Below, in pieces: positions 5,960-58,376 of a stretch of 64,000 nucleotides of DNA. The stretch is from an uncultured Gaiellaceae bacterium (GTDB lineage: Bacteria; Actinomycetota; Thermoleophilia; Gaiellales; Gaiellaceae). The stretch is taken from the NCBI GenBank assembly GCA_963802865.1, contig CAWDKB010000010.1:38731-102730 (forward strand), given 5' to 3'. The stretch's first letter is position 1. Each line of letters begins with the position of its first letter. The notes under the pieces were generated by a model. The model was not told where the DNA came from. It worked only from the letters and a program-made list of their open reading frames with translations, and did no database searches. A program made the translations under genes and the position numbers.

Positions 5960-6041
5960 CTGATACGGAGCCGGCTGCTCGATTCGCAGGCGGTGGGAGC
6001 GGTGGAGCGTCGACCACGATCCCCACCTTAGACCGAGCCGC

Positions 6042-10635: not shown

Positions 10636-10642
10636 GCACTCG

Positions 10643-11032
10643 TTACGGGTCGACGACGCGGGGACTGTGCGACGAGGAGTACACGTCCTTCCGCAGGATC
10701 AGCCCGTTCTCGAACGGAAAGATGTCGACACCGTCCCACTCGACTCGCTGTCCCTCGCGATTCGTCGCGCTCGCCCTCCATTCGCTGACCACCAGCCCGT
10801 CACGGACGTAGAGCCGGCGGCCGCTGAACGCCAGGTCGGGGTTGCGCTCGAAGATGCCGGCGAGATGCGGGCCGACGTCCTCGCCCTCGACCCGCTCGCC
10901 CGCGGTGTGGTTGTGGAACACCATTCCCGGCGCGTGGAACGAGAGGATGGTGTCGACGTCGTGCGCGTTCCAGGCGGCGTTGTAGCGCTCGATGACGTCC
11001 TCGAGCGCCGTTGCCGAGTCGCGTGAATTCAC
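10643..11032 (-). CDS. SnoaL-like (NTF2 fold) protein
   Basis: 129 aa starting with IERYNAAWNAHDVDTILSFHAPGMVFHNH. Confidence 0.7.
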   Translation of the reverse strand: MNSRDSATALEDVIERYNAAWNAHDVDTILSFHAPGMVFHNHTAGERVEGEDVGPHLAGIFERNPDLAFSGRRLYVRDGLVVSEWRASATNREGQRVEWDGVDIFPFENGLILRKDVYSSSHSPRVVDP

Positions 11033-11052
11033 GCGGGCGAGTATCGCAGCAC

Positions 11053-15153: not shown

Positions 15154-16101
15154 TCACACCTTCTTGATGTCGGGGCGACCGAGGATGCCCTGCGGTCGCA
15201 CGAGCATGAACACGATCAGCAGCGAGAAGATGACGAGGTTCGACAGCCCGACTGGGATCCCGATCCACTGCGTGATGTAGGTCACCGTCACGGCTTCGAC
15301 CGTGCCGAGAAGGAATCCGCCGAGCATCGCGCCGGGAATCGAGCCGATGCCGCCGATCACCGCGGCCGTGAACGCAAAGAGCCCCGGCGTGAAGCCCATC
15401 TGCGGGAAAACGTCGGTGCGAAGCGCGAACAGCACTCCCGCCGCACCCGCGAGAGCGCCCGAGAGGACGAACGCGAACATGATCACGCGGTCGATGTCGA
15501 TCCCCATCATCGCCGCTGCGTCGCGATCGATCGAGGTCGCCCTCATCGCCTTGCCGATACGCGTTCGGGCGACGAGGAACCAGAGCACGACCATGAGCAC
15601 GACGGCTGCCACGATCCCGATGACGCGGAGCCACGAGATCGTGAACGAGCCGATCGTGATGGCCGGCGCGTACAGCTTGCCGCCGGCCATGTTGAACGTG
15701 TCGTACGTGCGGTGGTTCGCCCCGTAGAGGAGCTGCATGCTGTACGAGAGAAAGAACGAGACACCGAGGGCGCTGATGAGCGGAGCGATGCGCGGAGCGT
15801 CGCGCAGTGGCCGGTACGCGAAGCGTTCGATGACCACGCCCAGCACCGCACACGCAGCCATCGCGGCGAGCGCCATCAGGATGAGCACGACCCAGATCGA
15901 GATCGTCGGATCGATCGCGCCGCCGAAGACCGTGAGGACTCCGAAGCCGACGTACGCCCCGACCATGAAGACGTCGCCGTGCGCGAAGTTGAGGAGCTTG
16001 AGGATCCCGTAGACCATCGTGTAGCCGAGAGCGATCAGCGCATACGTGCTCCCGAGCGTCGCCGAATTGACGACCGTCTGAAAGAGCTTGTCGTAGTCCA
16101 C
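15154..16101 (-). CDS. livH: HAAT ABC transporter permease
   Basis: 315 aa; contains YALIALGYTMVYGILKLLNFAHGDVFMVGAY. Confidence 0.9.
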   Translation of the reverse strand: MDYDKLFQTVVNSATLGSTYALIALGYTMVYGILKLLNFAHGDVFMVGAYVGFGVLTVFGGAIDPTISIWVVLILMALAAMAACAVLGVVIERFAYRPLRDAPRIAPLISALGVSFFLSYSMQLLYGANHRTYDTFNMAGGKLYAPAITIGSFTISWLRVIGIVAAVVLMVVLWFLVARTRIGKAMRATSIDRDAAAMMGIDIDRVIMFAFVLSGALAGAAGVLFALRTDVFPQMGFTPGLFAFTAAVIGGIGSIPGAMLGGFLLGTVEAVTVTYITQWIGIPVGLSNLVIFSLLIVFMLVRPQGILGRPDIKKV

Positions 16102-16205
16102 GGAGGTTGCGGGAGCCTACTCCGCCGCTCCCGCGGGGGAAACGGCGCCGGCACCGAGATCGAAACGTGTGGCCCCGGCCGGAGCCGAGGCCACACGTTG
16201 CGGCG

Positions 16206-17387
16206 TTAGAGCCTGCCGATCTGCTTCAGCGTGCCGTCGGCCTGGATCTGGAACACCCAGAAGCCGCCGTTCAGCGGATCGTTCGTCTTCGACGAGAAGC
16301 GGAACGAGCCACCGAGGATCCAGTTCGGCACCGGGCCGGCCTTCATCTTGCGCTTGATGTTGATGCGGTCGATGGACGACTTGCCCGCACACGCGCGCTT
16401 CGCCGCGTACAGGATCGCCTGCACCGCGCCGTAGGCAGGCGGTCCGAACACGTCGGCCGTCCGCTCGGGGTTGTCTCGCTTCCATGCAGCCAGGATCGCG
16501 GCCTTCCCCGGCACCGAAGCGATGTCCGGAGCGAAGTTGGACACGTACGAGCCCGGCACCTTGAACGCCGGGTCGACCGTGCCGTCACCGCCGAACACGA
16601 TCGCACGCTTGCCCTGCTCCTTCAGGAGCACTGCAACCTGGTTCGCATTCGCCGCGACCTGGAACGGGGTGAAGACCACGTCCGTGTCTCCCGCGATCCG
16701 CGTCACGAAGCTCGAGAAGTCGCTCGTCGTGTTCGTGACCGACAGCCGCTGCACCGGGACGTTCCGGCGCTCGAGATACCGCTCGATCGTGTTGGCGAGG
16801 CCGACCGAGTACGGCTCCTGTGCATCGAAGACCGTGGCCTTGTCGGCGTTGAGCTTCTCGACCGCGTACTTCGCCTGGCCCGTTCCCTGCACCGAGTCGT
16901 CCGCAACGACGCGGTAGAAGAAGCCGGTCGCCGTCGGCGACCCTCCCTTCGTCAACCCCGTATTCGTGGCCGAAGGCGTCACGTGCACGACACTCGCGTC
17001 CGCCAGCGTCTTGCTTGCGGAAGCGACGCCACCCGACGTCGCCGGCCCGATTGTCGCGATGACGTTGCGGTTACCGACGAGGCGCTGTGCTTGAGTTAGC
17101 GCAACGGCCGGATCGAGCACGGTGTCGTACGGGATGACCTTCGCCTTCAGCCCGAGCTGTGCGCCGACGCGCTTTGCTGCGAGCGCGGCCCAGCTCTGCT
17201 GCGACTGGCCGAGGAATGAGGCGGCACCCGACATGACTGTCATGTTCCCGATGTTGATCGTGCCTCTGCAACTGACTGCCGCAGCCTCGGAGCGCGCGCC
17301 TGCCTGCGTGTCTGCTCCTGCGGACGCCGCAAGCGACGCCGCGACCAGTGTTGCGAGAGCCGCGGCGATGAGTGCGCGTCTCTTCAT
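16206..17387 (-). CDS. ABC transporter periplasmic amino acid-binding protein (LivJ/K family)
   Basis: The internal ATG at 17387 is preceded by GGAGGAGGG and gives the signal peptide MKRRALIAAALATLVAASLAASAGA. Confidence 0.85.
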   Translation of the reverse strand: MKRRALIAAALATLVAASLAASAGADTQAGARSEAAAVSCRGTINIGNMTVMSGAASFLGQSQQSWAALAAKRVGAQLGLKAKVIPYDTVLDPAVALTQAQRLVGNRNVIATIGPATSGGVASASKTLADASVVHVTPSATNTGLTKGGSPTATGFFYRVVADDSVQGTGQAKYAVEKLNADKATVFDAQEPYSVGLANTIERYLERRNVPVQRLSVTNTTSDFSSFVTRIAGDTDVVFTPFQVAANANQVAVLLKEQGKRAIVFGGDGTVDPAFKVPGSYVSNFAPDIASVPGKAAILAAWKRDNPERTADVFGPPAYGAVQAILYAAKRACAGKSSIDRINIKRKMKAGPVPNWILGGSFRFSSKTNDPLNGGFWVFQIQADGTLKQIGRL

Positions 17388-19281: not shown

Positions 19282-21096
19282 GTGAGCGTGAGCCAGCGGT
19301 TCGTCGAACGTCTGCGCGACGGGCCGCCGATCGTGGCCGACGGCGGTATGGGCGCCCTCATCGGTGCGGCCGTCCCACGGTTGCGGTGTCCCGAGGAGGC
19401 GAACCTGCGCGCGCCGAAGGCTGTCGTCTCGCTGCACGTCGGCTTCATCGCCGCGGGAGCCGAGCTGATCGAGACGAACTCGTTCGGCGCCAACCGCACG
19501 AAGTTGCGCCAGCACTTCCTGGAGGACGAGCTCGAGGAGATCAACTCCGCGGCGATCAAGCTGGCCCGCGAGGCTCGGGAAGTCTCCGGCCGTGACGTCT
19601 TCATCGCGGGCTCGATCGGCCCGCTCGGCCAGACTGCGACCTCGCGCATCCGGCGCGAGGTCTTCGCGGAGCAGGCGCGAATCCTCGAAGGCCGCGGAGC
19701 GGATCTCTTCTCGATCGAGACGTTCTACGATCTGGACGAGATCCAGGATGCGATCGAGGCGGTTCGCTCCGTGTCGATGCTCCCGATCGTCGCGCTGATG
19801 ACCTTCGACGAGTCGGCGGAGACGCTCGCCGGCGTGACCGCGCGCGAGGCCGCCGAGCGGCTTCGCACACTCGACGTCGCCGCCATCGGCGCGAACCACG
19901 GAAGCGGCCTCCTTGCGGCTCTCGCAGCGCTCGAGCAGATGCGGGACGGCGAGCTCCCGCTCGCGACCCTGCCCAACATCGGGCTCGCGAGCCTCGCCGG
20001 TGGTCGCGTCATCTACCCGCATGCGACGCCCGAGTACTTCGCCGAGTTCGCCGCGCACGCGCGCGACCTCGGCGCCGGCCTCATCGGCGGCTGTTGCGGG
20101 ACGACCCCGGCGGAGATCGCAGCGATCCGATCGGCGGTCGACCAGGGCCAGCAACCGCGTGCGCCGCTCGAGTTCGCGGAACGGGAGCTCATCACGTCCC
20201 TCGGCGAGGAGCTGCTCGAGACGGGGCTCGCGCGCGCGTTTCGGGAGAACGAGTGGGTCGTCTCCGTGCAGCTCGACCCTCCACTCGGAAGCTCGCGGGC
20301 CGGACTGCTCGACACCGCACGCTCGCTGCACGAGTCGGGCCTCGTCGGCTTCGTGGACATCAACGACAACGCCACGGCGCGAGCCGGAATGAGCTCGCTC
20401 ATGGTGTCCGCGGCGATCGAGCGGGAGTGCGGGGTCGAGACCATCCCGCATCTGACGACGCGCGACTGGACGGTGATGGGACTCGAGTCGATGCTGCTCG
20501 GCGCGCACGCCGAGGGAGTGCGGAACGTCCTTGCGATCACCGGGGACCCGCCCGAGGTGGGCGACTACCCGGGAGCGCAAGGGGTGTACGAGATCGACGC
20601 CATCGGGCTGACGAAGCTCGTCTCGCAGCTCAACCGCGGGGAGGACTTCAACGGCCGCCCGATCGACGCGCCGACGTCGTTCTACGTCGGGGTGGCCGTG
20701 AACCCGACGGCCGACGACCTCGAGCTGGAGGTCGAGCGGTTCCGCGAGAAGCTCGCGGAAGGTGCGAAGTACGCGATGACGCAGATCGTCTTCGAGCTCG
20801 ACTCGCTCGAGCGCTTCGCGGAGCTGTTGGGCGGGACCTGGCCCATCCCGGTGCTCGTCGGCGTGTTCCCGCTGACGAGCCACCGGCTCGCGCTCCGGCT
20901 GCACAACGAGGTCCCGGGGATCCTCGTGCCCGAGGAGCTGCAGGAGCAGCTCGACCGCGCCGGCTCGTCCGCATCCGAGGTCGGGATGGCGCAGGCGAAG
21001 GAGCTGATCGATGCCGCCCGCGAGCGCTTCGCGGGTGTCTACGTGGTGGCGCCCTACCGGCGGCCGCTGGCCGTGCTCGACCTGCTCACTCCGTAG
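19282..21096 (+). CDS. bifunctional homocysteine S-methyltransferase / 5,10-methylenetetrahydrofolate reductase (YitJ-type)
   Basis: 604 aa. The N-terminal S-methyltransferase domain has ADGGMG, ETNSFGAN and GGCCGTTP. The C-terminal MTHFR domain has ITGDPP and the FPL.S... Confidence 0.9.
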   Translation: MSVSQRFVERLRDGPPIVADGGMGALIGAAVPRLRCPEEANLRAPKAVVSLHVGFIAAGAELIETNSFGANRTKLRQHFLEDELEEINSAAIKLAREAREVSGRDVFIAGSIGPLGQTATSRIRREVFAEQARILEGRGADLFSIETFYDLDEIQDAIEAVRSVSMLPIVALMTFDESAETLAGVTAREAAERLRTLDVAAIGANHGSGLLAALAALEQMRDGELPLATLPNIGLASLAGGRVIYPHATPEYFAEFAAHARDLGAGLIGGCCGTTPAEIAAIRSAVDQGQQPRAPLEFAERELITSLGEELLETGLARAFRENEWVVSVQLDPPLGSSRAGLLDTARSLHESGLVGFVDINDNATARAGMSSLMVSAAIERECGVETIPHLTTRDWTVMGLESMLLGAHAEGVRNVLAITGDPPEVGDYPGAQGVYEIDAIGLTKLVSQLNRGEDFNGRPIDAPTSFYVGVAVNPTADDLELEVERFREKLAEGAKYAMTQIVFELDSLERFAELLGGTWPIPVLVGVFPLTSHRLALRLHNEVPGILVPEELQEQLDRAGSSASEVGMAQAKELIDAARERFAGVYVVAPYRRPLAVLDLLTP

Positions 21097-22034
21097 CCCT
21101 TCGAGCCGACCGCATCCGCAAGCGCACTTCGCGGCTCCTCGCCTGCCCGCAGGCGCTCGAGAGCGAAGCCGAAGTCGTACAGCGGTAGCCATCCCAGCTC
21201 GTCCCGGGCCTTCGCGTTGACGTAGACACGCTCGATCGCAGGAAACATCCTCCACCCGCGCCGGCCGTACTCGTCCTCGTAGCCCGGGAAGAGGCGCGCG
21301 ACGACAGCGGCGGCATCCGTCCGCAGCTCGACGAGATCCGCCGCCGAGAACGGCGTGGTCGCGCTGACGACGTACCTCCCGAACCCGATGCCGGCTGCGC
21401 GCTCCAGCGCAAGCATGTGTGCGGAGACCGCGTCCGCGATGTCCACTCGACGATAGAGGAGCTCGTTGACCTTCGCGTTCGAGTCCTCGTAGGCAGCCGC
21501 GACCTCGCGCCGATCGTCCTCCTCCGGGAAGAAGCGCGAGGTGCGAAGCACCAGGCATGGAAGCCCGTGGTCCCTGTGCGCGAGCTCGCACAGGTCCTCG
21601 GCTGCGACCTTGGTGACCCCGTAGACGTTCCGCGGGACCGGTGCCACCTCCTCGGTGATCCACGTTGCCGGCTGCCCCGGCGGCGGCACCAGCGCTCGAC
21701 CGAACGCGCTCGTCGTGCTCGTGAAGACGAATGCGCGAACCCCGGCGGCCACTGCCTCCTCGAGGAGGTTGACCGTGCCGGAGACGTTGACGTCGACGAA
21801 CTCCTGCCACGACCTCACGCCGACGTGCGGTTTGTGCAGGCCAGCGGCGTGCAGCACCGCGTCGACCCCGTCCATGCACTCCCGCACGCGATCGCGATCG
21901 GCGATCGAGCCGACCACCGTCGTGAACGGCGACTCGACAACGTCCAGCGACACGACCTCGTGGCTCTCGATCTCGAGGGTGCGGACGAGCGCCTCGCCGA
22001 GGTGGCCGGAGCTACCCGTGACCAGGATCCTCAC
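21054..22034 (-). CDS. NAD-dependent epimerase/dehydratase family protein
   Basis: Begins MRILVTGSSGHLG (Rossmann fold), followed by the YGVTK catalytic motif. Confidence 0.85.
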   Translation of the reverse strand: MRILVTGSSGHLGEALVRTLEIESHEVVSLDVVESPFTTVVGSIADRDRVRECMDGVDAVLHAAGLHKPHVGVRSWQEFVDVNVSGTVNLLEEAVAAGVRAFVFTSTTSAFGRALVPPPGQPATWITEEVAPVPRNVYGVTKVAAEDLCELAHRDHGLPCLVLRTSRFFPEEDDRREVAAAYEDSNAKVNELLYRRVDIADAVSAHMLALERAAGIGFGRYVVSATTPFSAADLVELRTDAAAVVARLFPGYEDEYGRRGWRMFPAIERVYVNAKARDELGWLPLYDFGFALERLRAGEEPRSALADAVGSKGYGVSRSSTASGRR

Positions 22035-22055
22035 GGGTAGCTCCTGCGGACGGTC

Positions 22056-23516
22056 CTAGTACCGATACTGGTCGTTCTTGAACGGCCCCTCGACGGGGAT
22101 GCCGAGGTACGCGGCCTGCTCGGCACGCAGCTCGGTGAGATTCGCTCCGAGCGCATCTACGTGGAGCCGTGCGATCTTCTCGTCCAGCTGCTTCGGCAGC
22201 ACGTGCACGCCGATCGGATAGCTGTCCGTGTTCGTGTACAGCTCGATCTGCGCGACGGTCTGGTTCGAGAAGCTGTTCGACATGACGAAGCTCGGGTGCC
22301 CGGTGGCGTTCCCCAGGTTCAGGAGCCGGCCTTCGGAGAGCACGATGATCGCGCGCCCGTCCGGGTAGACCCACTGGTCGACCTGCGGCTTGATCGTGAC
22401 CCGCTCGATACCCGGCACCTGCGCGAGGCCGGCCATGTCGATCTCGTTGTCGAAGTGGCCGATGTTCCCGAGCACGGCGTTGTGCTTCATGCGATTCATG
22501 TGCTCGACCGTGACGACGTCGCGGTTGCCCGTCGCGGTGATGACCACGTCGGCCTGCTCGATCACGTCGTCGAGCGTCCGCACCTCGAGCCCGTTCATCA
22601 GCGCCTGCAGCGCGCAGATCGGGTCGATCTCGGTCACGACGACGCGGGCGCCCTGGGCCGACAGCGAGGCAGCCGAGCCCTTCCCGACGTCCCCGTACCC
22701 GCAGACGACGCACAGCTTTCCGGCCAGCATCAGGTCGACGGCGCGGTTGATGCCGTCCACGAGCGAGTGGCGGCAGCCGTAGAGGTTGTCGAACTTCGAC
22801 TTCGTGACCGAGTCGTTCACGTTGATCGCCGGGAACAGCAGCCGGCCGTCCTCGGCCATCTGCTGAAGGCGGTGCACGCCGGTCGTCGTCTCCTCGGTGA
22901 CGCCGAGGATGCCTTCGGCGATTCGCGTCCAGCGCTGCGGGTCGGCCTCGAGCGACGCCGTGAGGGCCTCGAGCACGATCCGGAACTCCTCCGAGTCGGC
23001 ACCTGCAGGGTCGGGGACTGCGCCCGCGCGCTCGAACTCGACGCCCTTGTGCACGAGCAGGGTTGCGTCGCCACCGTCGTCCAGGAGCATGTTCGGACCG
23101 CTCTCGGGCCACGTCAGCGCACGCTCGGTGCACCACCAGTACTCCTCGAGGGTCTCGCCCTTCCAGGCGAACACCGGGATCCCGCGCGGCTCCTCAGGCG
23201 TTCCCTCGAGCCCGACCGCGACGGCGGCAGCGGCGTGATCCTGCGTCGAGAAGATGTTGCAGGAGCACCAGCGCACCTCGGCACCGAGCGCGACCAGCGT
23301 CTCGATCAGCACGGCCGTCTGGATCGTCATATGCAGCGAGCCGGTGATGCGGGCGCCGGCGAGCGGCTGCGCCGCGGCGTACTCGCGCCGGAGCGACATC
23401 AGGCCCGGCATCTCGTGCTCGGCGAGCTCGATCTCCTTGCGGCCGAACGCCGCGAGCGAGAGGTCGGCGACGCGATAGTCCGCATCCGAGAGCGGACGAA
23501 GCGCAGTCTCTGTCAT
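22056..23516 (-). CDS. ahcY: adenosylhomocysteinase
   Basis: 486 aa with [36 protein letters not shown] and [14 protein letters not shown]. Confidence 0.97.
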
Positions 23517-23585
23517 CGAAGTCTCCTGTTCTGAAGTGTCAGCGTGAGTCGTTCGCGAACCGGAGATGGTACGTGTCGCGCGGCC

Positions 23586-24527
23586 TTATCGACCCGTCCG
23601 CAGGGCGACGGGCTGAGCCTCGAAATGGGTCATCCGCTTGAAGTCGCCGAAGCGCGCCTCGATCTCGGGGAAGGTGAGCCGCTGCAAACGCTCGCTCCCG
23701 AACTCCTCGATCGTGAACGACGCGAGCACCGATCCGTAGACCGCAGCGCAACGCAGGGTCTGGTCGGTCATCCCGGCCTCGGACTGGCAGTCCAGGTACC
23801 CGAAGAACCCGCCGGCGAAAGCGTCTCCGGCTCCGGTGGGATCGACCACGGTCTCTAGCGGGTAGCCGGGAACGGAGAAGAAGCCGGCGTCCGTGAACAT
23901 CGCCGCGCCGTAGCGGCCCTGCTTGACGACGACGACACGCGGGCCGAGCGCGTGGATCTGCTGGACGGCGCGCGCGAGGTTGGGCTCCTCCGTCAGCATC
24001 CGCACCTCGCCGTCGTTCAGCACGAGCACGTCCACGAGACCCATCGTGCGGACGAGCGACTCGCGCGCCGAGGAGATCCAGTAGTTCATCGAGTCGAGGC
24101 CAACGACCGCGGCCTTCACGCACTGCTCGCGCACGCGGCGCTGGACGTCCGGCTGGATGTTGGCGAGAAACACGACCGACGCGTCACGCGCCGACGGAGA
24201 CAGCACGGGATCGAACTCGGCGAACACATTCAGCTGTGTGTCGAGCGTCTCCGCCGTCTGCATGTCCTCGTCGTAGCGGCCCGCCCAGAAGAAGGAGCGC
24301 GAGCCGTCGATGTGCTCCACATCGCCCAGGTCGACACCGCGCGCCTCGAACACCGCGCTCTCGTCCGCGCCGAAGTCCTCGCCAACGACGCCGACGACGC
24401 GGACGTCGGTGAAGAAGCTGGCAGCGAGCGAGAAGTGCGTGGCGGCGCCGCCGAGAATGCGCTCGCGACTACCGAACGGCGTCTCGAGCGCGTCGAACGC
24501 GACAGAGCCGACGACGGTGACCGCCAT
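23586..24527 (-). CDS. PfkB family carbohydrate/nucleoside kinase (possible adenosine kinase)
   Basis: The internal ATG at 24527 gives MAVTVVGSVAFD. The PfkB C-terminal motif DPTGAGDAFAGG is present. Confidence 0.8.
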   Translation of the reverse strand: MAVTVVGSVAFDALETPFGSRERILGGAATHFSLAASFFTDVRVVGVVGEDFGADESAVFEARGVDLGDVEHIDGSRSFFWAGRYDEDMQTAETLDTQLNVFAEFDPVLSPSARDASVVFLANIQPDVQRRVREQCVKAAVVGLDSMNYWISSARESLVRTMGLVDVLVLNDGEVRMLTEEPNLARAVQQIHALGPRVVVVKQGRYGAAMFTDAGFFSVPGYPLETVVDPTGAGDAFAGGFFGYLDCQSEAGMTDQTLRCAAVYGSVLASFTIEEFGSERLQRLTFPEIEARFGDFKRMTHFEAQPVALRTGR

Positions 24528-24534
24528 CGGACCC

Positions 24535-25813
24535 TTAGGCGACGGCCTGCGGCTCGTGCACCGCCAGCCCGGCCGCCTGCCGGAGGAGCTCCGCCTTGTC
24601 GGTTCGCTCCCAGGTGAAGTCGTGGTCGTCGCGGCCGAAGTGGCCGTAGGCCGCGGTCTTCGCGTAGATCGGTCGCCGGAGGTCGAGGTCGCGCAGGATC
24701 GCAGCCGGGCGCAGATCGAAGTGCTCGACGACGAGGTCACGGATGCGGGCGACCGGGATCGTCTCCGTGCCGAAGCACTGGATCTGGATCGAGAACGGGT
24801 GCGCGATCCCGATCGCGTACGCGACCTGGAGCTCGCACCGGTCCGCCAGACCCGCGGCGACGACGTTCTTCGCCACGTAGCGGGCGGCGTACGCTGCAGA
24901 GCGGTCGACCTTCGTCGGATCCTTGCCGGAGAACGCGCCGCCGCCGTGACGGGCGGAGCCGCCGTAGGTGTCGACGATGATCTTGCGTCCGGTGAGACCC
25001 GTGTCCCCCATAGGGCCGCCCACCACGAACCGACCGGTCGGGTTCACGTACACGAAGTCCTTGTGCTCGAGCCGAGCCTCGTCGTACATGTCGCGCGGCA
25101 GGATCGGGTGGAGGACGCGCTCGATCAGGTCCGGCTTGATGAGCGCCTCAGAGTCGAGGTCGTCGGCATGCTGCGTCGAGATGAGCACCCGCTCGATCTC
25201 GACTGGGCGCTGCCGACCGTGCTCGTCGACCTCGTAGCGAACCGTGACCTGCGCCTTGCCGTCCGGCCGCAGGTACTTGAGCTCGTCGGCCTTGCGCACC
25301 TCGGCGAGGCGCTTGCAGATGCGGTGCGCGAGCGTGATCGGCAACGGCATCAGCTCGTCGGTCTCACGACACGCGTACCCGAACATCATCCCCTGGTCGC
25401 CGGCGCCGAGCTTGTCGAGCGGATCGTCGTCGGCGGGGTCGTGCTGCGCCTCGAACGAGGTGTCGACACCTTGCGCGATGTCCTTCGACTGCTCGTCGAC
25501 CGCGACGAGCACGCTGCACGTATTCGCGTCGAAGCCGTAGTCGGCGCGCGTGTACCCGATCTCCGCGATCTTGGCCCGCGCGATGCGCGGGATGTCCACG
25601 TACGTCGACGTCGTGATCTCGCCGCCGACGAGAACGAGGCCCGTCGTCAGGAAGGTCTCGCACGCGACTCGCGCGTGACGGGTCCTCGGCGAGGATGGCG
25701 TCGAGAACCGCGTCGGACACCTGGTCGGCGATCTTGTCGGGGTGGCCCTCCGTGACGGACTCGGAGGTGAAATGGAAGCCGTCCGGGGTGTCCGGCGGAG
25801 AGTCATGCGTCAT
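24535..25813 (-). pseudogene. metK: S-adenosylmethionine synthetase, frame interrupted by a 1-nt insertion as sequenced (possibly a sequencing error)
   Basis: The N-terminus [31 protein letters not shown] is in the frame starting at 25813. [22 protein letters not shown] and the remaining ~380 aa are in the frame of ORF 24535..25806. The shift is at about 25678, and the length is 3n+1. Confidence 0.9.
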
Positions 25814-33560: not shown

Positions 33561-36287
33561 ATGTCTAACGTGGTCGTGCGTCCAGGACACGAGACCGAGC
33601 AAGCGCTGCTCGACGCCGCCGAGCAGCTGCTCGTCGAGGTCGGCGCAGCCGGGATCACGACGCGGCGCGTGGCCGAAGCGGCCGGTGCAAACCACGGTCT
33701 CGTCCACTACTACTTCGGCTCCGTGGAGCAGCTGCTCGTGCGGGTGCTCGAGCGGTTCACGGAGCGCGTCATCGCCCGTCAGCGCGAGCTCTACGCGTCC
33801 GACGAGCCATTCGTGGAGAAGTGGCGGACGGCGATGCGCTATCTCGTGAGCGAGGACGCCACCTACGAGAAGATCTGGCTCGAACTGCAGGCGCTCGCGT
33901 GGAACCGCCCCGAGCTACGGGATCGGCTTGCGCATGTCAACGCCGAGTGGCGCGCCGTCCTCACGGACGCGTTCGACGAGCCGCGGCGCGAGCTGAACAT
34001 CGACATGCCGCTCGAGGCGCTCGTCTCGCTCGTCATGACGTTCAACATCGGGATCATGGTCGAGCGCCTCGGTGGCATCGAGAACGGCCACGCGCGCGCT
34101 CCTAAACTGGATCGACGGATGGCTGTCGAGCTGACGGCACCGCCACGCGAGCAGACGCGGGCCCGCTACCCGGACGAGTCCGGCTTCGCCGAGCGCGACG
34201 GCGTCCGCCTTTTCTACGAGGTCTACGGATTGGGCGAGCCTACGGTCTTGCTGATGCCGACGTGGTCGATCGTCCATGCGCGGCACTGGAAGATGCAGAT
34301 CCCCTACATGGCGCGACACTCCCGCGTGCTGACGTTCGACGGGCGCGGCAACGGCCGCTCCGACCGGCCCGCCGACGCCGACGCCTACCGCGAGGAGGAG
34401 TTCGCCGAGGACGCGATAGCGGTAATGGATGCCACTGGCACCGAGCGCGCGGTGCTGGTGTCGCTGTCACGGGGGGCCGAGCGGTCGCTCCACATCGCGG
34501 CGAGCTACCCCGGGCGGATCGACAAGCTGGTCTTCATCGCGCCGGCGCTGCCGTTGCCCCCAGCGACTCCGCGTCTGAAAGCGATCGAGGACTTCGGCGA
34601 GCTGCGTGACGAGTACTTCGGCTGGGCAAAGTGGAACCGCCACTACTGGATCGAGCACTACGAGGACTTCCTCGAGTTCTTCTTCTCGCAGTGCTTCACC
34701 GAGCCGCATTCGACGAAGCCGCGGGAGGACTGCGTCGGCTGGGGTCTCGAGACCGACCCCGAGACGCTCGTCGCCACTCAGCTCGCGCCCCGGCTCCAGG
34801 ACGAGGAGAGCGTGCGGGAGCTTCTCTCCCGGATCGAGTGCCCCGTGCTCGTGATCCACGGAAGCGACGACGCCGTGCGGCCGTGCGGATCCGGCGCGCG
34901 GCTCGCGGAGCTGGCGGGCGGCGAGCTTGTCGTCCTCGAGGGGTCGGGCCATATGCCCCACGTCCGCGACCCGGTGAAGGTCAACCTGCTCGTCCGCGAC
35001 TTCGTGGCCCCGGCCGCGCCGCCGCGGAGTTGGGTCCGGGGCAAGTCCCGCCGCAAGCGCGCGCTCTTCGTCTCGTCCCCAATCGGGCTCGGGCACGCGC
35101 AGCGAGACGCGGCGATCGCCGACGAGCTGCGCAAGCTCCACCCTGACCTCGAGGTCGACTGGCTCGCCCAGCATCCGGTCACGGCGGTGCTCGAGGCGCG
35201 CGGCGAACGGATCCATCCGGCCAGCGCGTTTCTCGCGAACGAGTCGCACCACATCGAGAGCGAGTCGGCCGAGCACGACCTGCACTGCTTCCAGGCGATC
35301 CGGCGGATGGATGAGATCCTGCTCGCCAACTTCATGCTCTTCCACGATCTCGTGCGCGAGGAGCAGTACGACCTCTGGATCGGCGACGAGGCGTGGGAGC
35401 TCGACTACTACCTGCACGAGAACCCGGAGCAGAAGCGGTCCTCGTATGTCTGGCTCACCGACTTCGTCGGCTGGCTGCCGATGGCCGACGGCGGCGACCA
35501 CGAGGCGTTCCTGACCGGCGACTACAACGAGGAGATGATCGAGCACATCGGGCGCTTCCCCCGCGTGCGCGATCAAGCCGTCTTCGTCGGCAACCCCGAG
35601 GACATCGTGCCGGAGCGGTTCGCGTCGCACCTTCCCTGGATACGGGACTGGACCGAGGAGCACTTCTCGTTCGCCGGCTACGTCACGGGCTTCGATCCCG
35701 CCGACTTCGCCGACCGGGCGGCGCTCAGGGCGGAGCTCGGCTACGGCGAGGACGAGCAGGTCTGCATCGTCACTGTCGGAGGCTCGGGCGTCGGCGGCGA
35801 CCTTCTGCGGCGCGTGATCGCCGCTTTCCCCGAGGCGAAGGAACGCGTGCCCGCGCTGCGCATGATCGTCGTCGCAGGCCCGCGGATACCTCCGGAGACG
35901 CTGCCCGAGCACGACGGGCTCGAGGTGCGCAGCTACGTCCACCAGCTCTACCGGCACCTCGCCGCCTGCGACCTCGCCGTGGTCCAGGGTGGCCTCACCA
36001 CGTCGATGGAACTGACCGCGAACCAACGCCCGTTCCTCTACTTCCCGCTTCGACACCACTTCGAGCAGAACTTCCACGTCCGCCACCGACTCGAGCGATA
36101 CGAGGCAGGTCGCTGCCTGGACTTCGAGCAGGAGACGCCGGAGACGATCGCCGCCGCCATCGCGCAGACGATCGGCGGAGAGGTCGACTACCGGCCGGTC
36201 GAGACGGACGGCGCCGCACGTGCAGCCGCCCTGATCGCGCCGCTTCTGGAAGAGGGAAAAGGGTCGAGAGCAAGAGCTACGTCTTGA
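33561..36287 (+). CDS. 908-aa ORF with TetR HTH (about 33561..34100), alpha/beta hydrolase (about 34119..35020) and GT-B glycosyltransferase-like (about 35040..36287) regions
   Basis: TetR region: ITTRRVAEAAGANHGLVHYYFGS. Hydrolase region: FDGRGNGRSDRP and a C-terminal GSGHMPH. Glycosyltransferase-like region: SSPIGLGHAQRD and GGLTTSMEL. The TetR part may be a separate gene ending at the TGA at 34132..34134, in an adjacent frame (see findings). Confidence 0.7.
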   Translation: MSNVVVRPGHETEQALLDAAEQLLVEVGAAGITTRRVAEAAGANHGLVHYYFGSVEQLLVRVLERFTERVIARQRELYASDEPFVEKWRTAMRYLVSEDATYEKIWLELQALAWNRPELRDRLAHVNAEWRAVLTDAFDEPRRELNIDMPLEALVSLVMTFNIGIMVERLGGIENGHARAPKLDRRMAVELTAPPREQTRARYPDESGFAERDGVRLFYEVYGLGEPTVLLMPTWSIVHARHWKMQIPYMARHSRVLTFDGRGNGRSDRPADADAYREEEFAEDAIAVMDATGTERAVLVSLSRGAERSLHIAASYPGRIDKLVFIAPALPLPPATPRLKAIEDFGELRDEYFGWAKWNRHYWIEHYEDFLEFFFSQCFTEPHSTKPREDCVGWGLETDPETLVATQLAPRLQDEESVRELLSRIECPVLVIHGSDDAVRPCGSGARLAELAGGELVVLEGSGHMPHVRDPVKVNLLVRDFVAPAAPPRSWVRGKSRRKRALFVSSPIGLGHAQRDAAIADELRKLHPDLEVDWLAQHPVTAVLEARGERIHPASAFLANESHHIESESAEHDLHCFQAIRRMDEILLANFMLFHDLVREEQYDLWIGDEAWELDYYLHENPEQKRSSYVWLTDFVGWLPMADGGDHEAFLTGDYNEEMIEHIGRFPRVRDQAVFVGNPEDIVPERFASHLPWIRDWTEEHFSFAGYVTGFDPADFADRAALRAELGYGEDEQVCIVTVGGSGVGGDLLRRVIAAFPEAKERVPALRMIVVAGPRIPPETLPEHDGLEVRSYVHQLYRHLAACDLAVVQGGLTTSMELTANQRPFLYFPLRHHFEQNFHVRHRLERYEAGRCLDFEQETPETIAAAIAQTIGGEVDYRPVETDGAARAAALIAPLLEEGKGSRARATS

Positions 36288-49872: not shown

Positions 49873-50505
49873 CTAGCGAGCAGCTCGCCACAGGGTCGGG
49901 TGAACGAGAGGCACGCAGCCTTCCCAGCCCGACCGCAGGATCTCCACGAGCGAGGATGGCGTGATCACGGTCCCGGGCTCGCTCTCCCGCGGCATGCGGT
50001 CCGCGTAGCCGGCGGGAGTCCACCGCCCGAGCGCAGATCCAAGGACGATCCAGGGAGCACCGTCGCGCAGCACGAAGGCGCCGTCCGGGAGAGTGTCCAG
50101 GTGCGCCTCGTGGTGGTGCTGCGCCCGCCCGACGGCCGTGAGTCGCTCGGAGTGGAGCCGGGCGTCGATCGCGTCCGCACCGACCTGGTCTGGATGAAGC
50201 TCGCGCCAGAGCTCGCCGAAGCGCACGTAGTCCTCGCGCCGGCAGAGCGCGCAAGGCCGATGTCCCGCGGCGAAGGCGGTCGCCTCGTCGAGGAAGAAGA
50301 GCTCGGTGAACCTCCCAGGCTGAAGTAGCGGCTCGCGGTGCCAGCCGCGAAACTCCAGCCGGCAGGCGATCCAGCGCTTGCCCGCGTATCGGCGGCGGAT
50401 GCGTCCTGTGTCGTCGTGGAGGCAGCCGCGGTTTCCGTACACGAGCCCGCGCGCCGGGTCGGCGATCAGCTCGCCGAGCGGTGTGACCCGATTCTGGAGC
50501 GGCAC
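49873..50505 (-). CDS. conserved hypothetical Cys-containing protein coupled to modC
   Basis: 210-aa ORF with NRGCLHD and HRPCALCRREDY. Its GTG start lies 1 nt after the modC stop. Confidence 0.55.
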   Translation of the reverse strand: MPLQNRVTPLGELIADPARGLVYGNRGCLHDDTGRIRRRYAGKRWIACRLEFRGWHREPLLQPGRFTELFFLDEATAFAAGHRPCALCRREDYVRFGELWRELHPDQVGADAIDARLHSERLTAVGRAQHHHEAHLDTLPDGAFVLRDGAPWIVLGSALGRWTPAGYADRMPRESEPGTVITPSSLVEILRSGWEGCVPLVHPTLWRAAR

Positions 50506-50506
50506 G

Positions 50507-51551
50507 TCAGGCTCGCTGCTCGGGGAGGAGCCGTGCGGCGGTCGCCTTGAAGGAGGCGACGACGACTTCGCCCTCCCTGAGGCCGAGCTTCTCGGCCGAG
50601 GCAGAGGTCACCTCGGCGACGAGCGGCCCGACCCGCACGCGCATCCTGTTCCCGAGCGGCGTGATCGACGTGATCGCGGCCCGCACGTGGTTGACCGCCG
50701 AGTCGTCCGTCTGCTGCCGCGCGAGCAGGACGTCCCACGGGTAGACCGCCAACCCGACACGCCCCGAGCCCGCATCGGTCGTCCACGCGGACAGTCCTCC
50801 GTCGAGGGCGATCTCGGTGAGGCCGTTCCGTGAGCCCGCGACGGTGCCGTGCAGGATGGTGGCGCCGGTGAAGGTCGCGACGAACGGGTCGATCGGCGTG
50901 GCGACGAGGTCGGTCGCGGTACCCGTCTGGAGGATCCGGCCGTCGACGATGACGCCGATCGTGTCCGCGAGCGCAGCAGCATCTTCGAAGTCGTGCGTGA
51001 CGAGGATCGTCGGCAGAGCGAGGTCGCGCAGGTGATGGTGGAGCTCACCGCGCACCGCGGCCTTGGTGTGCGCGTCGAGCGCCGAGAGCGGCTCGTCGAG
51101 GAGGAGCACGCCAGGATCGCGCGCAAGGGCTCGAGCCAGAGCGACACGTTGGCGCTCGCCGCCCGAGAGCTCGCGAGGACGTGCGCGAGCGAGGTGCGCG
51201 ATGCCGAAGCGCTCGAGCATCTCGGCCGCCTTCCCGGAACGGCGCGCGCCGAAGCCGACGTTCGCCGAGACGTCGAGGTGCGGGAACAGCGCGTACTCCT
51301 GGAAGAGGTAGCCGACGCGCCGCTCCTCGGGCGCGAGCGATACCGCTGCGCCCGTGTTCAGCCAGTACTCGTCGTCGAGCGAGACGACCCCCCGCTCGGG
51401 TCGCAGCAGACCGGACACCACCCGCAGCACCGTCGACTTGCCGGCGCCCGACGGGCCGACGAGGGCCAGCGTCTCGGCCTGGCCGGACCGTCAGCTCGAC
51501 CGCGGCGGTGTAGCTGCGAAGGGGATGAGTGAAGTCGACCCAGAGCGCCAT
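50507..51551 (-). pseudogene. modC: molybdate ABC transporter ATP-binding protein, frame interrupted by a 1-nt indel as sequenced
   Basis: MALWVDF..AVELTV is in ORF 51045..51551. GQAETLALVGPSGAGKSTVLRV.., LSGGERQR and the C-terminal TOBE-like domain are in the frame of ORF 50507..51430. The shift is near 51485. Confidence 0.85.
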
Positions 51552-55037: not shown

Positions 55038-55733
55038 ATGGCGCAGGCGCGCGAGCTCGTCCCGGTCCTCGTGGACTCGGCGCTGGCGCTCGAGGAGGTT
55101 CGGATCGCGTCGGGCGACTCCCTCTCGGTGACGGACTCGGACCGGGACACGCTCGTCTACGTCGTCGACGGCTCGGGGTCGCTCGCGCTGGACGGCTCGA
55201 CTGCTGAGGAACTCGACCGAGGAGATGCAGGACTCGTCCTGGCGGCGGAGGCAGCGCGAATCGATGCGGCCGAGGACGAGCTGCTGCTGCTCGTCGCGAG
55301 CGTCGGGGCGGATGCCGACCGGCATGCACTACTCGGCGCGCGCGAAACGGTTTCGCGCGGCGGCGGAGCGGGCGCGGAGAAAGCGACGGGCGCGCGTTCG
55401 TTCCAGATCCTGCTCGGCCCCCACAACGGCTCGACACGCGCGACCCTCTTCGCCGGCTTCGTCCCGTCCGGGAAGGCTCCCTGGCACTACCACCTCTACG
55501 ACGAGATCGTGTGGGTGGCGGACGGCCGCGCGCGTCTGCACATCGGCAAGACCGCCGAGGAGCTCGGCGCGGGGTCCGCGTTCCGCCTCCGCCCGCGCCA
55601 GGTTCACATCGTCGAGAACCTGAGCGAGAAGGACGAGCTGACGGTGATCGGGATCTTCACGCCTGCGGGAAGCCCGTCCGCCGCCTATCTGACTCCGGAC
55701 GTCGCCGCCGAGTACCGATTCGCCGGCGAGTGA
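55038..55733 (+). CDS. bicupin protein
   Basis: It has two cupin-like modules. The second contains WHYHLYDEIVWVADGRARL and HIVEN. Confidence 0.75.
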   Translation: MAQARELVPVLVDSALALEEVRIASGDSLSVTDSDRDTLVYVVDGSGSLALDGSTAEELDRGDAGLVLAAEAARIDAAEDELLLLVASVGADADRHALLGARETVSRGGGAGAEKATGARSFQILLGPHNGSTRATLFAGFVPSGKAPWHYHLYDEIVWVADGRARLHIGKTAEELGAGSAFRLRPRQVHIVENLSEKDELTVIGIFTPAGSPSAAYLTPDVAAEYRFAGE

Positions 55734-56887
55734 GCCGGCTGCACCCGTTCTGGACGCTCGTCTGGATCAGGGTCGCGTTCCTGCTCGGAACCGCGGCAAC
55801 CCTTCTCTGGGCGCCTGCCTCCGGGGATGCGCTTCCCGGAATCGGAGCCTGGGACCCGGTGACGGACCTCGTCTTCGGCACCTTCGCCCACTGGGACGCC
55901 GAGTGGTTCCACCGGATCGCCGAGAACGGCTACGACGAGGTCTCGGCTGCGTTCTTCCCCCTCTATCCCGCACTGCTCTGGCTCGTGAGCTCGTCACTCG
56001 TGTGGGGAACGCTGATCTCGCTCGTCGCAGCGGGACTCGGCGCCTGGTGCGTCTACGAGATCGCGCGAGAGAAGCTCGGACCGGAGGGTGCGCACGACAC
56101 GGTCCTCGTCCTGGCCCTCTTCCCGACGGCCTTCGTCTTCACCGCGCTCTACTCGGACGGGCTGTTCCTGCTGTTCTCGGCAGCATCGTTCCTCGCGGCC
56201 GAGCGCGGGCGGCCGTGGCTCGCCGGCCTCGCCGGCGCGCTGGCCGTCGCGTCGCGCTCGATGGGCCTCGCGCTCCTCCCCGCGCTCGTCTACCTCCTGT
56301 GGCCGCGGAGGCGCAGAGAGCTCTGGCGCCTGGCGCCGCTGCTCCTGCTCCCGGCAGCGCTCGGGCTGTACGCGTTCTACCTCGACCGCGAGGTCGGCGA
56401 CGCGTTCGCGTTCACGGATGCGCAGGCGTCCGGCTGGGAGCGCGAACTCGCGACGCTCGGCCCTCTCGGCGGGCTCTGGATGGCCGTCGAGGCCGGAGGC
56501 CACGGCGCGCTCGAGATCCTGCGCGATCTCCCGCGAACCGGAGCCGGGATCGAGTACTCGCAGCCGCTCCAGGTCTCGTTCTGGAACGCCGCGCACCTCC
56601 TCGTCCTCGTCCCGGTCGCATGGTTGACCTGGGTGGCCTGGCGCCGGCTCGGGCCGGCGCTCGGTCTGTACGCGGTCGCGACGTTGCTGGTGATCCTGAG
56701 CGTCCCGTCGGAGGGGTTCCCGCTCGTGAGCATGCCTCGCTTCGTTCTCACCGACTTCCCCGTGCTCATCGCGCTCGCCGCGGTGATCCGGGAACGACCG
56801 CGCCTCCGCACGAGCGTGCTGGTCGGGCTGGGCGCGCTGAGCGCGGCCGCCGGCGTCGCGTTCTCGCGCGAGGTGTGGATCGCATGA
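55730..56887 (+). CDS. integral membrane mannosyltransferase-like protein (PIG-V/GT-C-like)
   Basis: Its GTG overlaps the upstream stop (GTGA). Contains FAHWDAEWFHRIAENGY and FFPLYPALLW, and about 9 transmembrane helices. Confidence 0.7.
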   Translation: MSRLHPFWTLVWIRVAFLLGTAATLLWAPASGDALPGIGAWDPVTDLVFGTFAHWDAEWFHRIAENGYDEVSAAFFPLYPALLWLVSSSLVWGTLISLVAAGLGAWCVYEIAREKLGPEGAHDTVLVLALFPTAFVFTALYSDGLFLLFSAASFLAAERGRPWLAGLAGALAVASRSMGLALLPALVYLLWPRRRRELWRLAPLLLLPAALGLYAFYLDREVGDAFAFTDAQASGWERELATLGPLGGLWMAVEAGGHGALEILRDLPRTGAGIEYSQPLQVSFWNAAHLLVLVPVAWLTWVAWRRLGPALGLYAVATLLVILSVPSEGFPLVSMPRFVLTDFPVLIALAAVIRERPRLRTSVLVGLGALSAAAGVAFSREVWIA

Positions 56888-57207
56888 CCCTCGAACGACC
56901 CGTGCTCCTGTACGACGCGGGCTGACGCTTCTGTCGCTTTGCGGCGCGTGTCGCCGTCAGGCTCGACCGGCGCGAGCGGCTCGCGTTCCTGCCGCTACAG
57001 GATCCCGCTGCAGCTCCGCTGCTCGAGTCGCTCCCCGACTCCGAACGCCTCGCGAGCTGGCGGCTCGTGCGCGAGGACGGCACGCTCGTCGGCTACGGAA
57101 TCGTCCGCGGCCGGGTACCGGACGCCCTCTACGGGCTCGTCGCTCGCCACCGCGAGCGCCTCGGCCGCATCGTTCCCGACGGCGCTGCGCCACGCCGGTA
57201 CCCCTAG
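56884..57207 (+). CDS. DCC/DUF393 family thiol-disulfide oxidoreductase-like protein with an in-frame TGA at codon 14 (candidate selenocysteine; alternatively a nonsense-mutated pseudogene)
   Basis: Translation: MTLERPVLLYDAG-TGA-RFCRFAARV..RLAFLPLQDP..ALYGLVARHRERLG. The frame is the same on both sides of the TGA at 56923..56925. The ATG overlaps the upstream stop (ATGA). Confidence 0.55.
56941..56957 (+). promoter_or_regulatory. hairpin downstream of the in-frame UGA (SECIS-like position)
   Basis: GCGGCG-CGUGU-CGCCGU, starting 16 nt after the UGA. Confidence 0.25.
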
Positions 57208-57218
57208 CCCGATTAGGT

Positions 57219-58376
57219 TTGAATGCTGTGAATCACGACCGGTTCGGTCCATTGGCGGGCCACCGCGTCCTGGAGCTCGGGGGCATCGGGCCTGGACCCT
57301 TCTGCGGGATGATCCTGGGCGACCTCGGCGCGGAGGTGATCCGCATCGACCGGCCCGGCGAGACGGGTGACAAGAACCCTCAGCCGGTGCTGCACCGCGG
57401 TCGGCGCTCGATCACGATCGACCTCAAGAGCGAGGCGGGGTCCGCGATCGCCCTGCGACTGGTCGACACCGCAGACGCGCTGATCGAGGGGTTCCGCCCC
57501 GGAGTCACGGAGCGGCTCGGGCTCGGCCCAGAAATCTGCCTGGCGCGCAATCCGCGACTGGTCTACGGCCGGATGACCGGTTGGGGACAGGAGGGACCGC
57601 TTTCGCACGAGCCCGGTCACGACCTCAACTACGTCGGCATCGCGGGAGCGCTCGGCGCGATCGGCCCGCCGGACGGCGACCCCGTCGTGCCGCTGAACCT
57701 GATCGGCGACATGGGCGGAGGCGGGATGCTCCTCGCGCTAGGGGTCTCCGCGGCGCTCGTCAACGTCGCGAAGACGGGCGAGGGCCAGGTCGTCGACGCC
57801 GCGATGACGGACGGCACGGCGATCATGCTCGGCATCGTCCACGGCCTGCTCGCCCGCGGGCTCTGGACCGACAGTCGTGGCGCGAACCTCCTCGACGGGG
57901 GCGCACCGTTCTACAGGACCTATCGCTGCGCGGACTGCGGCCACATCGCGGTCGGCGCCCTCGAGCCGGAGTTCTACGCCGCCCTGCTGCGCGTCCTCGA
58001 CCTCACGGACGACCCCGGCTTCGCTCACCAGCACGACCGGGCGTCGTGGCCGAAGATGGCCACACGGCTCGCCGAGATCTTCGCAACGCGTTCTCGCGAC
58101 GAGTGGGCCAACGTCTTTGCAGGCGAGGGCGCGTGCGTGACCGCGGTACTGGGACTCGCAGAGGCCGCCGTCCATCCGCACAACTCCGCCCGGGGCACGT
58201 ACACACTGGAGGACGGCGTCATCCAGCCGGGAGTCGCCCCGCGGTTCCTCGGCACCCCACCGGGGGCGCCTGCGCCGGCTCCGCGCGTCGGGGCCCACAC
58301 GACGGAGGTCCTGGCCGAGATCGGGCTCGAACCGACTGCGATCGACGAACTCCGCCGAAGTGGGGTCATCGGCTGA
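57219..58376 (+). CDS. family III CoA-transferase (CaiB/BaiF; alpha-methylacyl-CoA racemase-like)
   Basis: Contains GPLAGHRVLELGGIGPGPFCGMILGDLGAEVIRIDRPG. The start may be the TTG at 57219 or the GTG at 57228. Confidence 0.85.
   Translation: MNAVNHDRFGPLAGHRVLELGGIGPGPFCGMILGDLGAEVIRIDRPGETGDKNPQPVLHRGRRSITIDLKSEAGSAIALRLVDTADALIEGFRPGVTERLGLGPEICLARNPRLVYGRMTGWGQEGPLSHEPGHDLNYVGIAGALGAIGPPDGDPVVPLNLIGDMGGGGMLLALGVSAALVNVAKTGEGQVVDAAMTDGTAIMLGIVHGLLARGLWTDSRGANLLDGGAPFYRTYRCADCGHIAVGALEPEFYAALLRVLDLTDDPGFAHQHDRASWPKMATRLAEIFATRSRDEWANVFAGEGACVTAVLGLAEAAVHPHNSARGTYTLEDGVIQPGVAPRFLGTPPGAPAPAPRVGAHTTEVLAEIGLEPTAIDELRRSGVIG

Follow-up and report, generated by a model that had tools for sequence, protein, structure and literature searches.

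A probable selenoprotein gene of the DCC1-like/DUF393 family in uncultured soil Gaiellaceae

A 64,000-nucleotide stretch of DNA from an uncultured Gaiellaceae bacterium (GenBank assembly GCA_963802865.1, contig CAWDKB010000010.1, positions 38,731 to 102,730), referred to here in its entirety as the window, carries on its forward strand a small gene of the DCC1-like/DUF393 family (PF04134; 56884..57207, 107 codons) whose reading frame contains a TGA at codon 14 (56923..56925). From the ATG at 56884 the frame reads MTLERPVLLYDAG, reaches the TGA at 56923-56925, and then continues as RFCRFAARVAVRLDRRERLAFLPLQDP…PDGAAPRRYP to a TAG stop at 57205-57207, with the peptide that follows the TGA beginning RFCRF. 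The original prediction, made from the sequence alone, was that this TGA encodes selenocysteine (Sec) where a CxxC redox motif would have its first Cys, with a selenocysteine insertion sequence (SECIS) downstream. The translation, the Pfam match, the homologues and the ratios of nonsynonymous to synonymous substitution rates (dN/dS) all point to a selenoprotein gene. The TGA lies within the motif D11-A-G-U14-R-F-C17 (DxxUxxC; 56914..56934, forward strand), defined from an alignment of Cys homologues and an AlphaFold2 model of a homologue, and the comparison of TGA with TGC or TGT at this site is the basis for the proposed reading of the codon as Sec. Further along the same strand, inside the coding sequence, lies a SECIS-like hairpin (56941..56957), recognised from its pairing in Sec and Cys forms and from its synonymous sites. 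The start codon of the gene overlaps the stop of its upstream neighbour in an ATGA (56884..56887, forward strand), with that neighbour's TGA occupying 56885-56887, where its open reading frame (ORF) ends. This overlap would fit translational coupling to the upstream gene, which encodes a GT-C type membrane glycosyltransferase (PMT_2 / Mannosyl_trans2; 55730..56887, forward strand) identified through Pfam and through gene calls in the related loci L001, L088 and L209. Both the overlap and the open frame between the TGA and the TAG are as the original prediction described them.

The product belongs to a recognisable subfamily. With the U replaced by C, the 107-residue sequence matches PF04134 at 36.8 bits, against a cut-off of 27.8, although the match spans only positions 1-56 of the 113 in the profile. 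Approximately 30 full-length Cys homologues of 107 amino acids were found at 70-77 % identity, all with C-R-F-C at the site of the UGA; those with a taxon name are from Gaiellaceae, and the full-length ones are annotated as PF04134. The subfamily lacks ~21 residues that relatives of ~128 amino acids have. That the partial Pfam match might reflect a decayed gene with an internal deletion was considered and ruled out, as the 107-residue form is itself a conserved subfamily. Each of the three length classes of the wider family (~99, 107 and ~128 amino acids) includes Sec forms as well as Cys forms.

The position of the TGA is exact. In an alignment of 28 Cys homologues, C14, the position of the TGA, is an invariant column, as are D11 and C17, which bears out the claim that the TGA coincides exactly with the leading Cys of CxxC. 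A TGA at this codon of DxxCxxC is present in at least 116 distinct homologous sequences, while TGC or TGT occupies the same column in 45 close homologues; sequences without the TGA always have Cys at codon 14, and never Trp. In a scan that took a single genome for each GTDB species, the TGA was found at codon 14 in 13 species-representative metagenome-assembled genomes (MAGs), nearly all of them classified as Gaiellaceae or 'uncultured Actinomycetes', and originating from both long-read (MFD) and short-read projects. Contigs with the TGA form include CAVUCT010000007, CAWAOK010000009, CAWGAN010000002, CAVUTL010000003, JAJTCQ010000022 and DATKBJ010000018. The TGA form is also carried by the WGS sets CAWGJJ01, CAWJTZ01, CAVQVA01, JBGSXQ01, CAWJYD01, CAVPJY01 and CAVUTA01 and by the bin of ERZ25039576 contig_23981, and Cys forms alone by CAVWES01, CAVPXQ01, CAVRWE01, CAVTIQ01 and DATIBA01. 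A DNA-pattern scan of JGI metagenomes, using a pattern that ended at alignment column 14 (columns being numbered from the UGA), matched at least 120 contigs, with true homologues on at least 114 soil metagenome contigs by an approximate count. These homologues share the sequence U-R-[FL]-C-R, and their ORFs run intact to a C-terminus of PDGPAPRR[YF]P.

The TGA is retained over both short and long evolutionary distances. It is kept in L209, a 99.9 % identical strain from another sample that differs by 10 substitutions in 10.9 kb, and whose DCC protein differs from that of the window by the single change D65N. It is also common to relatives down to ~50 % identity. In a neighbour-joining tree the Sec and Cys forms are interleaved, with at least 17 state changes by parsimony.

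The protein is under purifying selection on both sides of the UGA. Across 48 Sec forms of the 107-residue class, dN/dS was 0.13 in the nine codons that precede it and 0.26 in those that follow, and no decay is visible past the UGA, with ORFs running intact to the conserved C-terminus. Therefore the peptides upstream and downstream of the UGA are translated in one frame, which excludes both a pseudogene and a restart downstream. No in-frame start follows closely on the UGA in the window, where an Arg takes the place of the Met from which the gene caller began in L001. Hence the stretch beyond the TGA, to whose conservation the original prediction had looked for a decision, is conserved.

The hairpin has the form GCGGCG-CGUGU-CGCCGU, with a 5' arm at 56941-56946, a loop of CGUGU at 56947-56951 and a 3' arm at 56952-56957. 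It begins 16 nt after the UGA, with a spacing of 21 nt between UGA and loop; the loop G at 56948 is invariant, and 56949 is the position occupied by U or G. The 17-nt hairpin of the window has a free energy of -8.3 kcal/mol. In the published model of bacterial SECIS elements, the loop is 3-9 nt, the stem 4-16 bp and the energy at or below -7.5 kcal/mol; the loop has G at its first or second position, in most cases with G or U next, and lies 16-37 nt from the UGA (PMC13188914). The window hairpin, with its loop of 5 nt, stem of 6-8 bp, spacing of 21 nt and energy of -8.3 kcal/mol, falls within all of these ranges. Hence the hairpin was correctly located in the original prediction, G/U in the loop included, and its proposed compatibility with a bacterial SECIS is upheld by this geometry and by the comparison of homologues.

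That comparison separates the two forms of the gene. The hairpin occupies alignment columns 19-35, and the search pattern used for the metagenomes ended at column 14, hence the hairpin region was not selected for in that set. It pairs in each of the first 17 Sec forms; overall, 110 of 116 Sec forms have the complete set of six pairs and the remaining 6 have five, as against a complete hairpin in 6 of 65 Cys forms. When constrained to the hairpin, the mean energy is -7.25 kcal/mol for the Sec forms and +0.8 kcal/mol for the Cys forms. The loop G (column 26) is invariant in Sec forms, and the base that follows is only ever U or G, giving a loop of N-G-[U/G]. Compensatory changes were found at pair 19-35, which changed from G-C to A-U in four sequences, and at pair 24-30, which changed from G-C to C-G in one. 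The outer pair 18-36 is G-C in 46 sequences and C-G in 36. Changes on both sides of a pair exceeded those in all 500 shuffles, a result to be read with the relatedness of the sequences in mind.

Codon choice within the hairpin follows the same division. GCG encodes the Ala at codon 7 after the UGA in 115 of the 116 Sec forms, compared with 23 of 41 Cys forms (Fisher p = 2e-11). The Arg at codon 8, which forms loop positions 1-3, is never CGC in the 116 Sec forms, in contrast to 15 of 43 Cys forms (Fisher p = 4e-10); instead it is CGT in 87, CGG in 21 and AGG in 8. CGC accounts for 53 % of the Arg codons in the genes of the window. Codons 1, 4, 11 and 12, outside the hairpin, vary similarly in the Sec and Cys sets. 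Synonymous resampling that preserved each peptide and the codon usage of the window gave an expected frequency of 20 % (maximum 29 %) for the full hairpin, against 95 % observed, and of 39 % for the loop motif, against 100 % observed. Over the first 12 codons past the UGA the synonymous rate (dS) was 0.30, compared with 0.92 elsewhere; of these 12, codons 1-4 had been constrained in part by the search pattern. Hence RNA-level selection at synonymous sites maintains the hairpin, and does so specifically in the TGA forms.

The fold can be described from a predicted model. The AlphaFold2 model of the Cys homologue P0003 (77 % identical; predicted local distance difference test score, pLDDT, 82; predicted template modelling score, pTM, 0.74) has the topology β1-CxxC-α1-β2-α2-β3-β4-α3, which places the motif at the start of helix 1, as in thioredoxins. 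In a Foldseek comparison with the PDB, all of its top matches are glutaredoxins, glutathione S-transferase N-domains or mycoredoxin-1, at values short of significance. In Arabidopsis, DCC1 is a thiol-disulfide oxidoreductase with a DxxCxxC motif that has been reported to reduce the complex-I subunit CA2, and the N-terminal DxxCxxC is the redox motif of the family (PMC7598583).

Taken together, the at least 116 TGA forms, the 45 Cys forms, the selection on the protein and the hairpin support the central proposal that Sec replaces the first Cys of CxxC with a SECIS downstream, and the gene at 56884-57207 very probably is a genuine Sec-encoding gene. Conservation of the UGA, the existence of paired Sec and Cys homologues, purifying selection on the protein and RNA-level selection on the hairpin are demonstrated in these data, and most of the bacterial selenoprotein families catalogued so far are defined by the same evolutionary signatures. 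Which residue is inserted, what part SelB plays, and by what redox chemistry and on what substrate the protein acts, we infer as follows. Translation would begin at the ATG that overlaps the glycosyltransferase stop, and when the ribosome reached the UGA at codon 14, the hairpin at 56941-56957 would serve as a bacterial SECIS, recruiting SelB·GTP·Sec-tRNA(Sec) such that Sec was inserted instead of translation terminating. The predicted product is a thioredoxin-fold DCC1-like/DUF393 thiol-disulfide oxidoreductase of 107 residues (~12 kDa), in which the attacking N-terminal Cys is replaced by Sec (DxxUxxC). Sec14 and Cys17, at the N-terminus of helix 1, would then cycle between the selenol/thiol and selenenylsulfide states, reducing or isomerising disulfides of a partner protein. 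The most likely chemistry would have Sec14 attack the substrate disulfide and Cys17 resolve the intermediate through a selenenylsulfide.

Several results weigh against such a Sec-encoding gene. Covariation within the hairpin consists mostly of one-sided changes from G-C to G-U, with few compensatory changes in the core pairs. Its stability relative to shuffled sequences is at chance (z = 0.03) in this 70 % GC sequence, hence the support for the hairpin is comparative and not thermodynamic. A search of 56880-57010 with Rfam at a permissive threshold returned only chance matches to microRNAs and small RNAs, and no family. A complete hairpin is also found in a few Cys forms, among them L030, L053 and L054 with TGC. 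None of the Foldseek matches of the P0003 model is significant (best E = 0.02, TM ~0.4), and sequence searches found no solved structure of a homologue. Finally, the known apparatus of Sec insertion was not encountered: ARAGORN and Rfam found no tRNA-Sec in the window, only tRNA-Asp; ARAGORN found none in 55 genome loci and 0.49 Mb of metagenome loci; the 10 kb past the window's end held no tRNA-Sec either; and neither in the window, nor in those 10 kb, nor in any of the Gaiellaceae loci was there a selA, selB or selD.

The last of these results is bounded by the DNA that was available. The source genome was covered for ~74 kb, comprising the window and 10 kb past its end, and the searches for the machinery spanned ~1.1 Mb of related loci that are neighbourhoods of DCC genes and not whole genomes. 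Hence the missing Sec machinery is an absence of test, rather than a negative result. Furthermore, tRNA-Sec of the 8/4 type have been described in Actinobacteria (PMC5389517), and ARAGORN may miss tRNAs of this type. When E. coli SelA, SelB and SelD were compared with all loci by tblastn, two matches were obtained, one to TypA/BipA (in L038) and one to a fragment of a Sec-type SelD (in L060). Searches with SelD proteins returned fragments and Cys-type SelDs of Solirubrobacterales, none on a contig bearing a Sec-form DCC gene, and neither selA nor selB was found in the context of two such selD genes. The fragment in L060, from the unclassified Actinomycetota MAG swi_bin.21, occupies positions 1-240 of the reverse strand, where it is ended by the contig edge, and reads …SYSHGGG-TGA-ACKLG…; hence Sec is decoded in at least one related actinobacterial lineage. 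The same locus has a Cys-type DCC gene (2761-3147) 2.5 kb from the Sec-type SelD. An all-against-all scan of the loci for a second selenoprotein, comparing TGA with Cys, gave mostly artefacts of antisense frames, the only genuine cases being the DCC gene and the L060 selD, and a scan of the window based on GC content at third codon positions (GC3) found nothing more. Two other selD genes are broken: an otherwise intact Solirubrobacterales selD in L087 has an in-frame TAG (10346-10348), and that in L086 (10001-11000) has frameshifts. These breaks are either long-read assembly errors or pseudogenes.

In the Cys forms L030, L053 and L054, which keep a complete hairpin, the DCC gene starts at ~3001, and the hairpin of L054 is nucleotide-identical to that of many Sec forms. 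Judged by their sequences, they look like either recent switches from Sec to Cys, or Cys forms that are pre-adapted to Sec.

Other explanations of the in-frame UGA differ in how much of this evidence they can accommodate. The UGA might be recoded through a route resembling that of SECIS and SelB, with Cys inserted by a selC*-type tRNA(Cys)(UCA), such that the product would be an ordinary CxxC protein. [quoted passage not shown] A conserved UGA, a hairpin and Cys homologues would look identical under this explanation, and comparative signatures cannot separate it from Sec insertion. Yet the known cases come from Deltaproteobacteria and certain other groups, whose genomes encode the complete Sec apparatus as well (PMC5389517), with none reported in Gaiellales; and if Cys were all that was inserted, nothing evident would be gained by keeping a UGA and a SECIS instead of the TGC that the relatives freely use. 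Cys insertion is an unlikely explanation. Programmed read-through of the UGA by a near-cognate tRNA, such as that for Trp, or regulated termination with pausing modulated by the hairpin, would dispense with Sec altogether. In other systems a hairpin that lies downstream can raise read-through, and the failure to find Sec machinery in the loci covered also speaks for this explanation. However, the UGA replaces the catalytic Cys of an invariant DxxCxxC, where a Trp or Arg would abolish the one chemistry that the family conserves; the uniform use of Cys, and not Trp, by homologues without the TGA tells against it too; and the G-[G/U] of the loop and the spacing of 21 nt are features of bacterial SECIS elements. 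Read-through is a very unlikely source of these patterns.

The remaining explanations deny that the UGA is specially decoded at this site. The source is apparently a long-read metagenome in which broken genes are common, such as a split peptidase and kinase in L001 and the selD genes of L086 and L087, making a sequencing or assembly error conceivable, and the original prediction had itself named a nonsense mutation from TGC to TGA as the alternative. Against both stands the recurrence of the TGA in at least 116 distinct sequences, which come from numerous projects, short-read assemblies of JGI and NCBI among them, and in a second assembly, that of the 99.9 % identical strain L209. The ORFs are also intact as far as …PDGPAPRR[YF]P, and dN/dS is 0.13-0.27. 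The conserved TGA and purifying selection thus exclude the nonsense mutation, and error or pseudogenisation in general is extremely improbable. That UGA is a sense codon throughout the organism, the situation in codes 4 and 25, is suggested by the in-frame UGA itself and by nothing further. TGA is the commonest ordinary stop, ending 25 of the 51 predicted genes of the window, including the gene directly upstream, hence any recoding must be local and site-specific. In the all-against-all scan of the loci, furthermore, DCC genes and one selD were the only genuine instances of an in-frame TGA opposite a sense codon. A sense-UGA code is thereby excluded, and we regard it as having a negligible likelihood.

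A Sec-encoding gene decoded through SelB and tRNA-Sec remains the favoured explanation. It is unlikely, albeit worth stating, that Gaiellaceae and related soil Actinomycetota decode this UGA outside the canonical SelA/SelB/tRNA-Sec route. The possibilities would include a tRNA(Cys) resembling tRNA(Sec), an 8/4-type tRNA missed by the tRNA finder, or a divergent factor that reads the short hairpin. Were this the case, a small DCC redox protein would be the main client sustaining a non-standard form of recoding in an abundant soil lineage.

The Sec-form DCC proteins resemble known systems in some respects, and depart from them in others. Like the Sec-containing thioredoxins, glutaredoxins, DsbA-like proteins and others with UxxC motifs (Table 1 of PMC13188914), they would be small thioredoxin-fold proteins with Sec in place of the N-terminal Cys, abundant Cys homologues, and a SECIS within the coding sequence immediately after the UGA. 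They differ in their Pfam family (PF04134), in the context D-x-x-U-R-[FL]-C-R, and in the location of the UGA near the start of the gene, at codon 14. They are also found in high-GC soil Gaiellaceae, whereas most such families come from anaerobes and marine taxa. They share the Pfam threshold and the N-terminal DxxCxxC with other DCC1-like/DUF393 proteins, such as Arabidopsis DCC1 and Bacillus subtilis YuxK, from which they are distinguished by the change of the first Cys to Sec and, in the 107-residue subfamily, by the shorter length noted above. We know of no bacterial PF04134 member with a known substrate. Compared with the bacterial SECIS model of the bSECISearch type (Fig. 2A of PMC13188914), the hairpin has the same 5-nt apical loop, upper stem of 6-8 bp, and G at the second loop position followed by U or G. 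However, it is short, it has no conserved lower stem, and its binding by SelB is only predicted; the family mean for the minimal 17-nt hairpin (-7.25 kcal/mol) just misses the -7.5 threshold of the model. Recoding by selC* and SelB* (PMC5389517) would share the UGA and hairpin signal, but that system inserts Cys, is unreported in Thermoleophilia or Gaiellales, and finds no evidence in this dataset.

The family appears to have escaped previous catalogues. A review from May 2026 lists 119 prokaryotic selenoprotein families and subfamilies with domain identifiers, and PF04134 is absent from this catalogue (PMC13188914). Neither DCC nor DUF393 is mentioned in the main texts of deep-Sep and BSepDB, or in the deep-Sep supplements; a literature search found no paper joining DUF393, DCC or YuxK with a selenoprotein; and NCBIfam release 20 contains no model that matches the DCC protein. 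The Sec-form DCC proteins would be a new family among the well-known UxxC thioredoxin-fold selenoproteins that have an in-frame bacterial SECIS.

The genomic neighbourhood offers context, rather than an indication of function. The longest ORF of the upstream glycosyltransferase starts at 55511, and the called gene, of 385 amino acids, starts at ~55730. The genes farther upstream encode cupin, zf-UBP and TrmO proteins. On the downstream side are a family III CoA-transferase (57309..58376, forward strand; identified by Pfam, with a corresponding L209 gene call at 4211-5278), LtrA and an M2/M3 peptidase; no functional link between the CoA-transferase and the DCC gene is evident. The pairing of glycosyltransferase and DCC genes occurs in the window, in L001, in L002 and in one JGI contig, and it is not general, being found by tblastn in 9 of 133 loci, and no functional link is claimed. 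The remainder of the window consists of housekeeping genes.

Other features of the window and its relatives were observed in passing. A ModABC-like ABC transporter lies ~5-7 kb upstream of the Sec-form DCC gene, at 49873-51430 of the window (reverse strand) and 3550-6109 of the syntenic L001, with the ATPase (ABC_tran and TOBE domains) seen in the window, and the permease and SBP_bac_11 protein in L001. It could transport an oxyanion, for instance molybdate, sulfate or selenate, and nothing supports any one of these. A class-V aminotransferase (PF00266; 11053-12192, reverse strand), from a family that includes cysteine desulfurases and selenocysteine lyases, lies 45 kb away from the Sec gene, and nothing seen here connects the two. 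A methionine and S-adenosylmethionine (SAM) cycle cluster at 19282-25806 comprises a fusion of homocysteine S-methyltransferase with methylenetetrahydrofolate reductase (MTHFR), S-adenosylhomocysteine (AdoHcy) hydrolase, a PfkB kinase and SAM synthetase, of which the ORFs of the last two overlap by ~200 nt as listed. An ORF of 908 amino acids at 33561-36287 (forward strand) combines TetR_N, alpha/beta-hydrolase and Glyco_tran_28_C domains, and is probably several genes fused through indels or assembly errors. In L209, positions 10001-16721, which correspond to window position 63099 onwards and extend past the end of the window, hold a phosphate, polyphosphate and arsenic block of PhoU_div, PHO4, polyphosphate kinase, Ppx, a MIP channel, ArsR and an LMWPc protein resembling arsenate reductase.

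Automated gene calling mishandles the Sec-form DCC genes. Four matches in the search with the 107-residue protein (P0030, P0066, P0102 and P0103) are N-terminally truncated calls of 75-83 amino acids that start past the UGA and have no Pfam domain. In three of them, the upstream frame read from the DNA is …LLYDAG-TGA-RFCRF… or …LLYDAT-TGA-RFCRF…, hence these calls are short because the gene callers restarted past the TGA. In L209 the gene was not called at all, and an antisense ORF of 85 amino acids was called in its place (L209 3897-4154; window 56995-57252, reverse strand). Therefore the family, being truncated or missed, is invisible in standard annotation, and as this mis-calling is systematic, the use of selenium in soil is under-counted.

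A Sec-encoding DCC gene implies that selenocysteine is used by the Gaiellaceae, a group of abundant and largely uncultured soil actinobacteria. Judging by the number of metagenome contigs that carry true homologues, the family is also common. The many independent switches between Sec and Cys, some of which kept the hairpin, provide a natural series through which to follow the origin and decay of a SECIS within a coding sequence. The conserved Sec, as read from these sequences, lends support to a catalytic redox role for the poorly characterised DUF393 family of bacteria.

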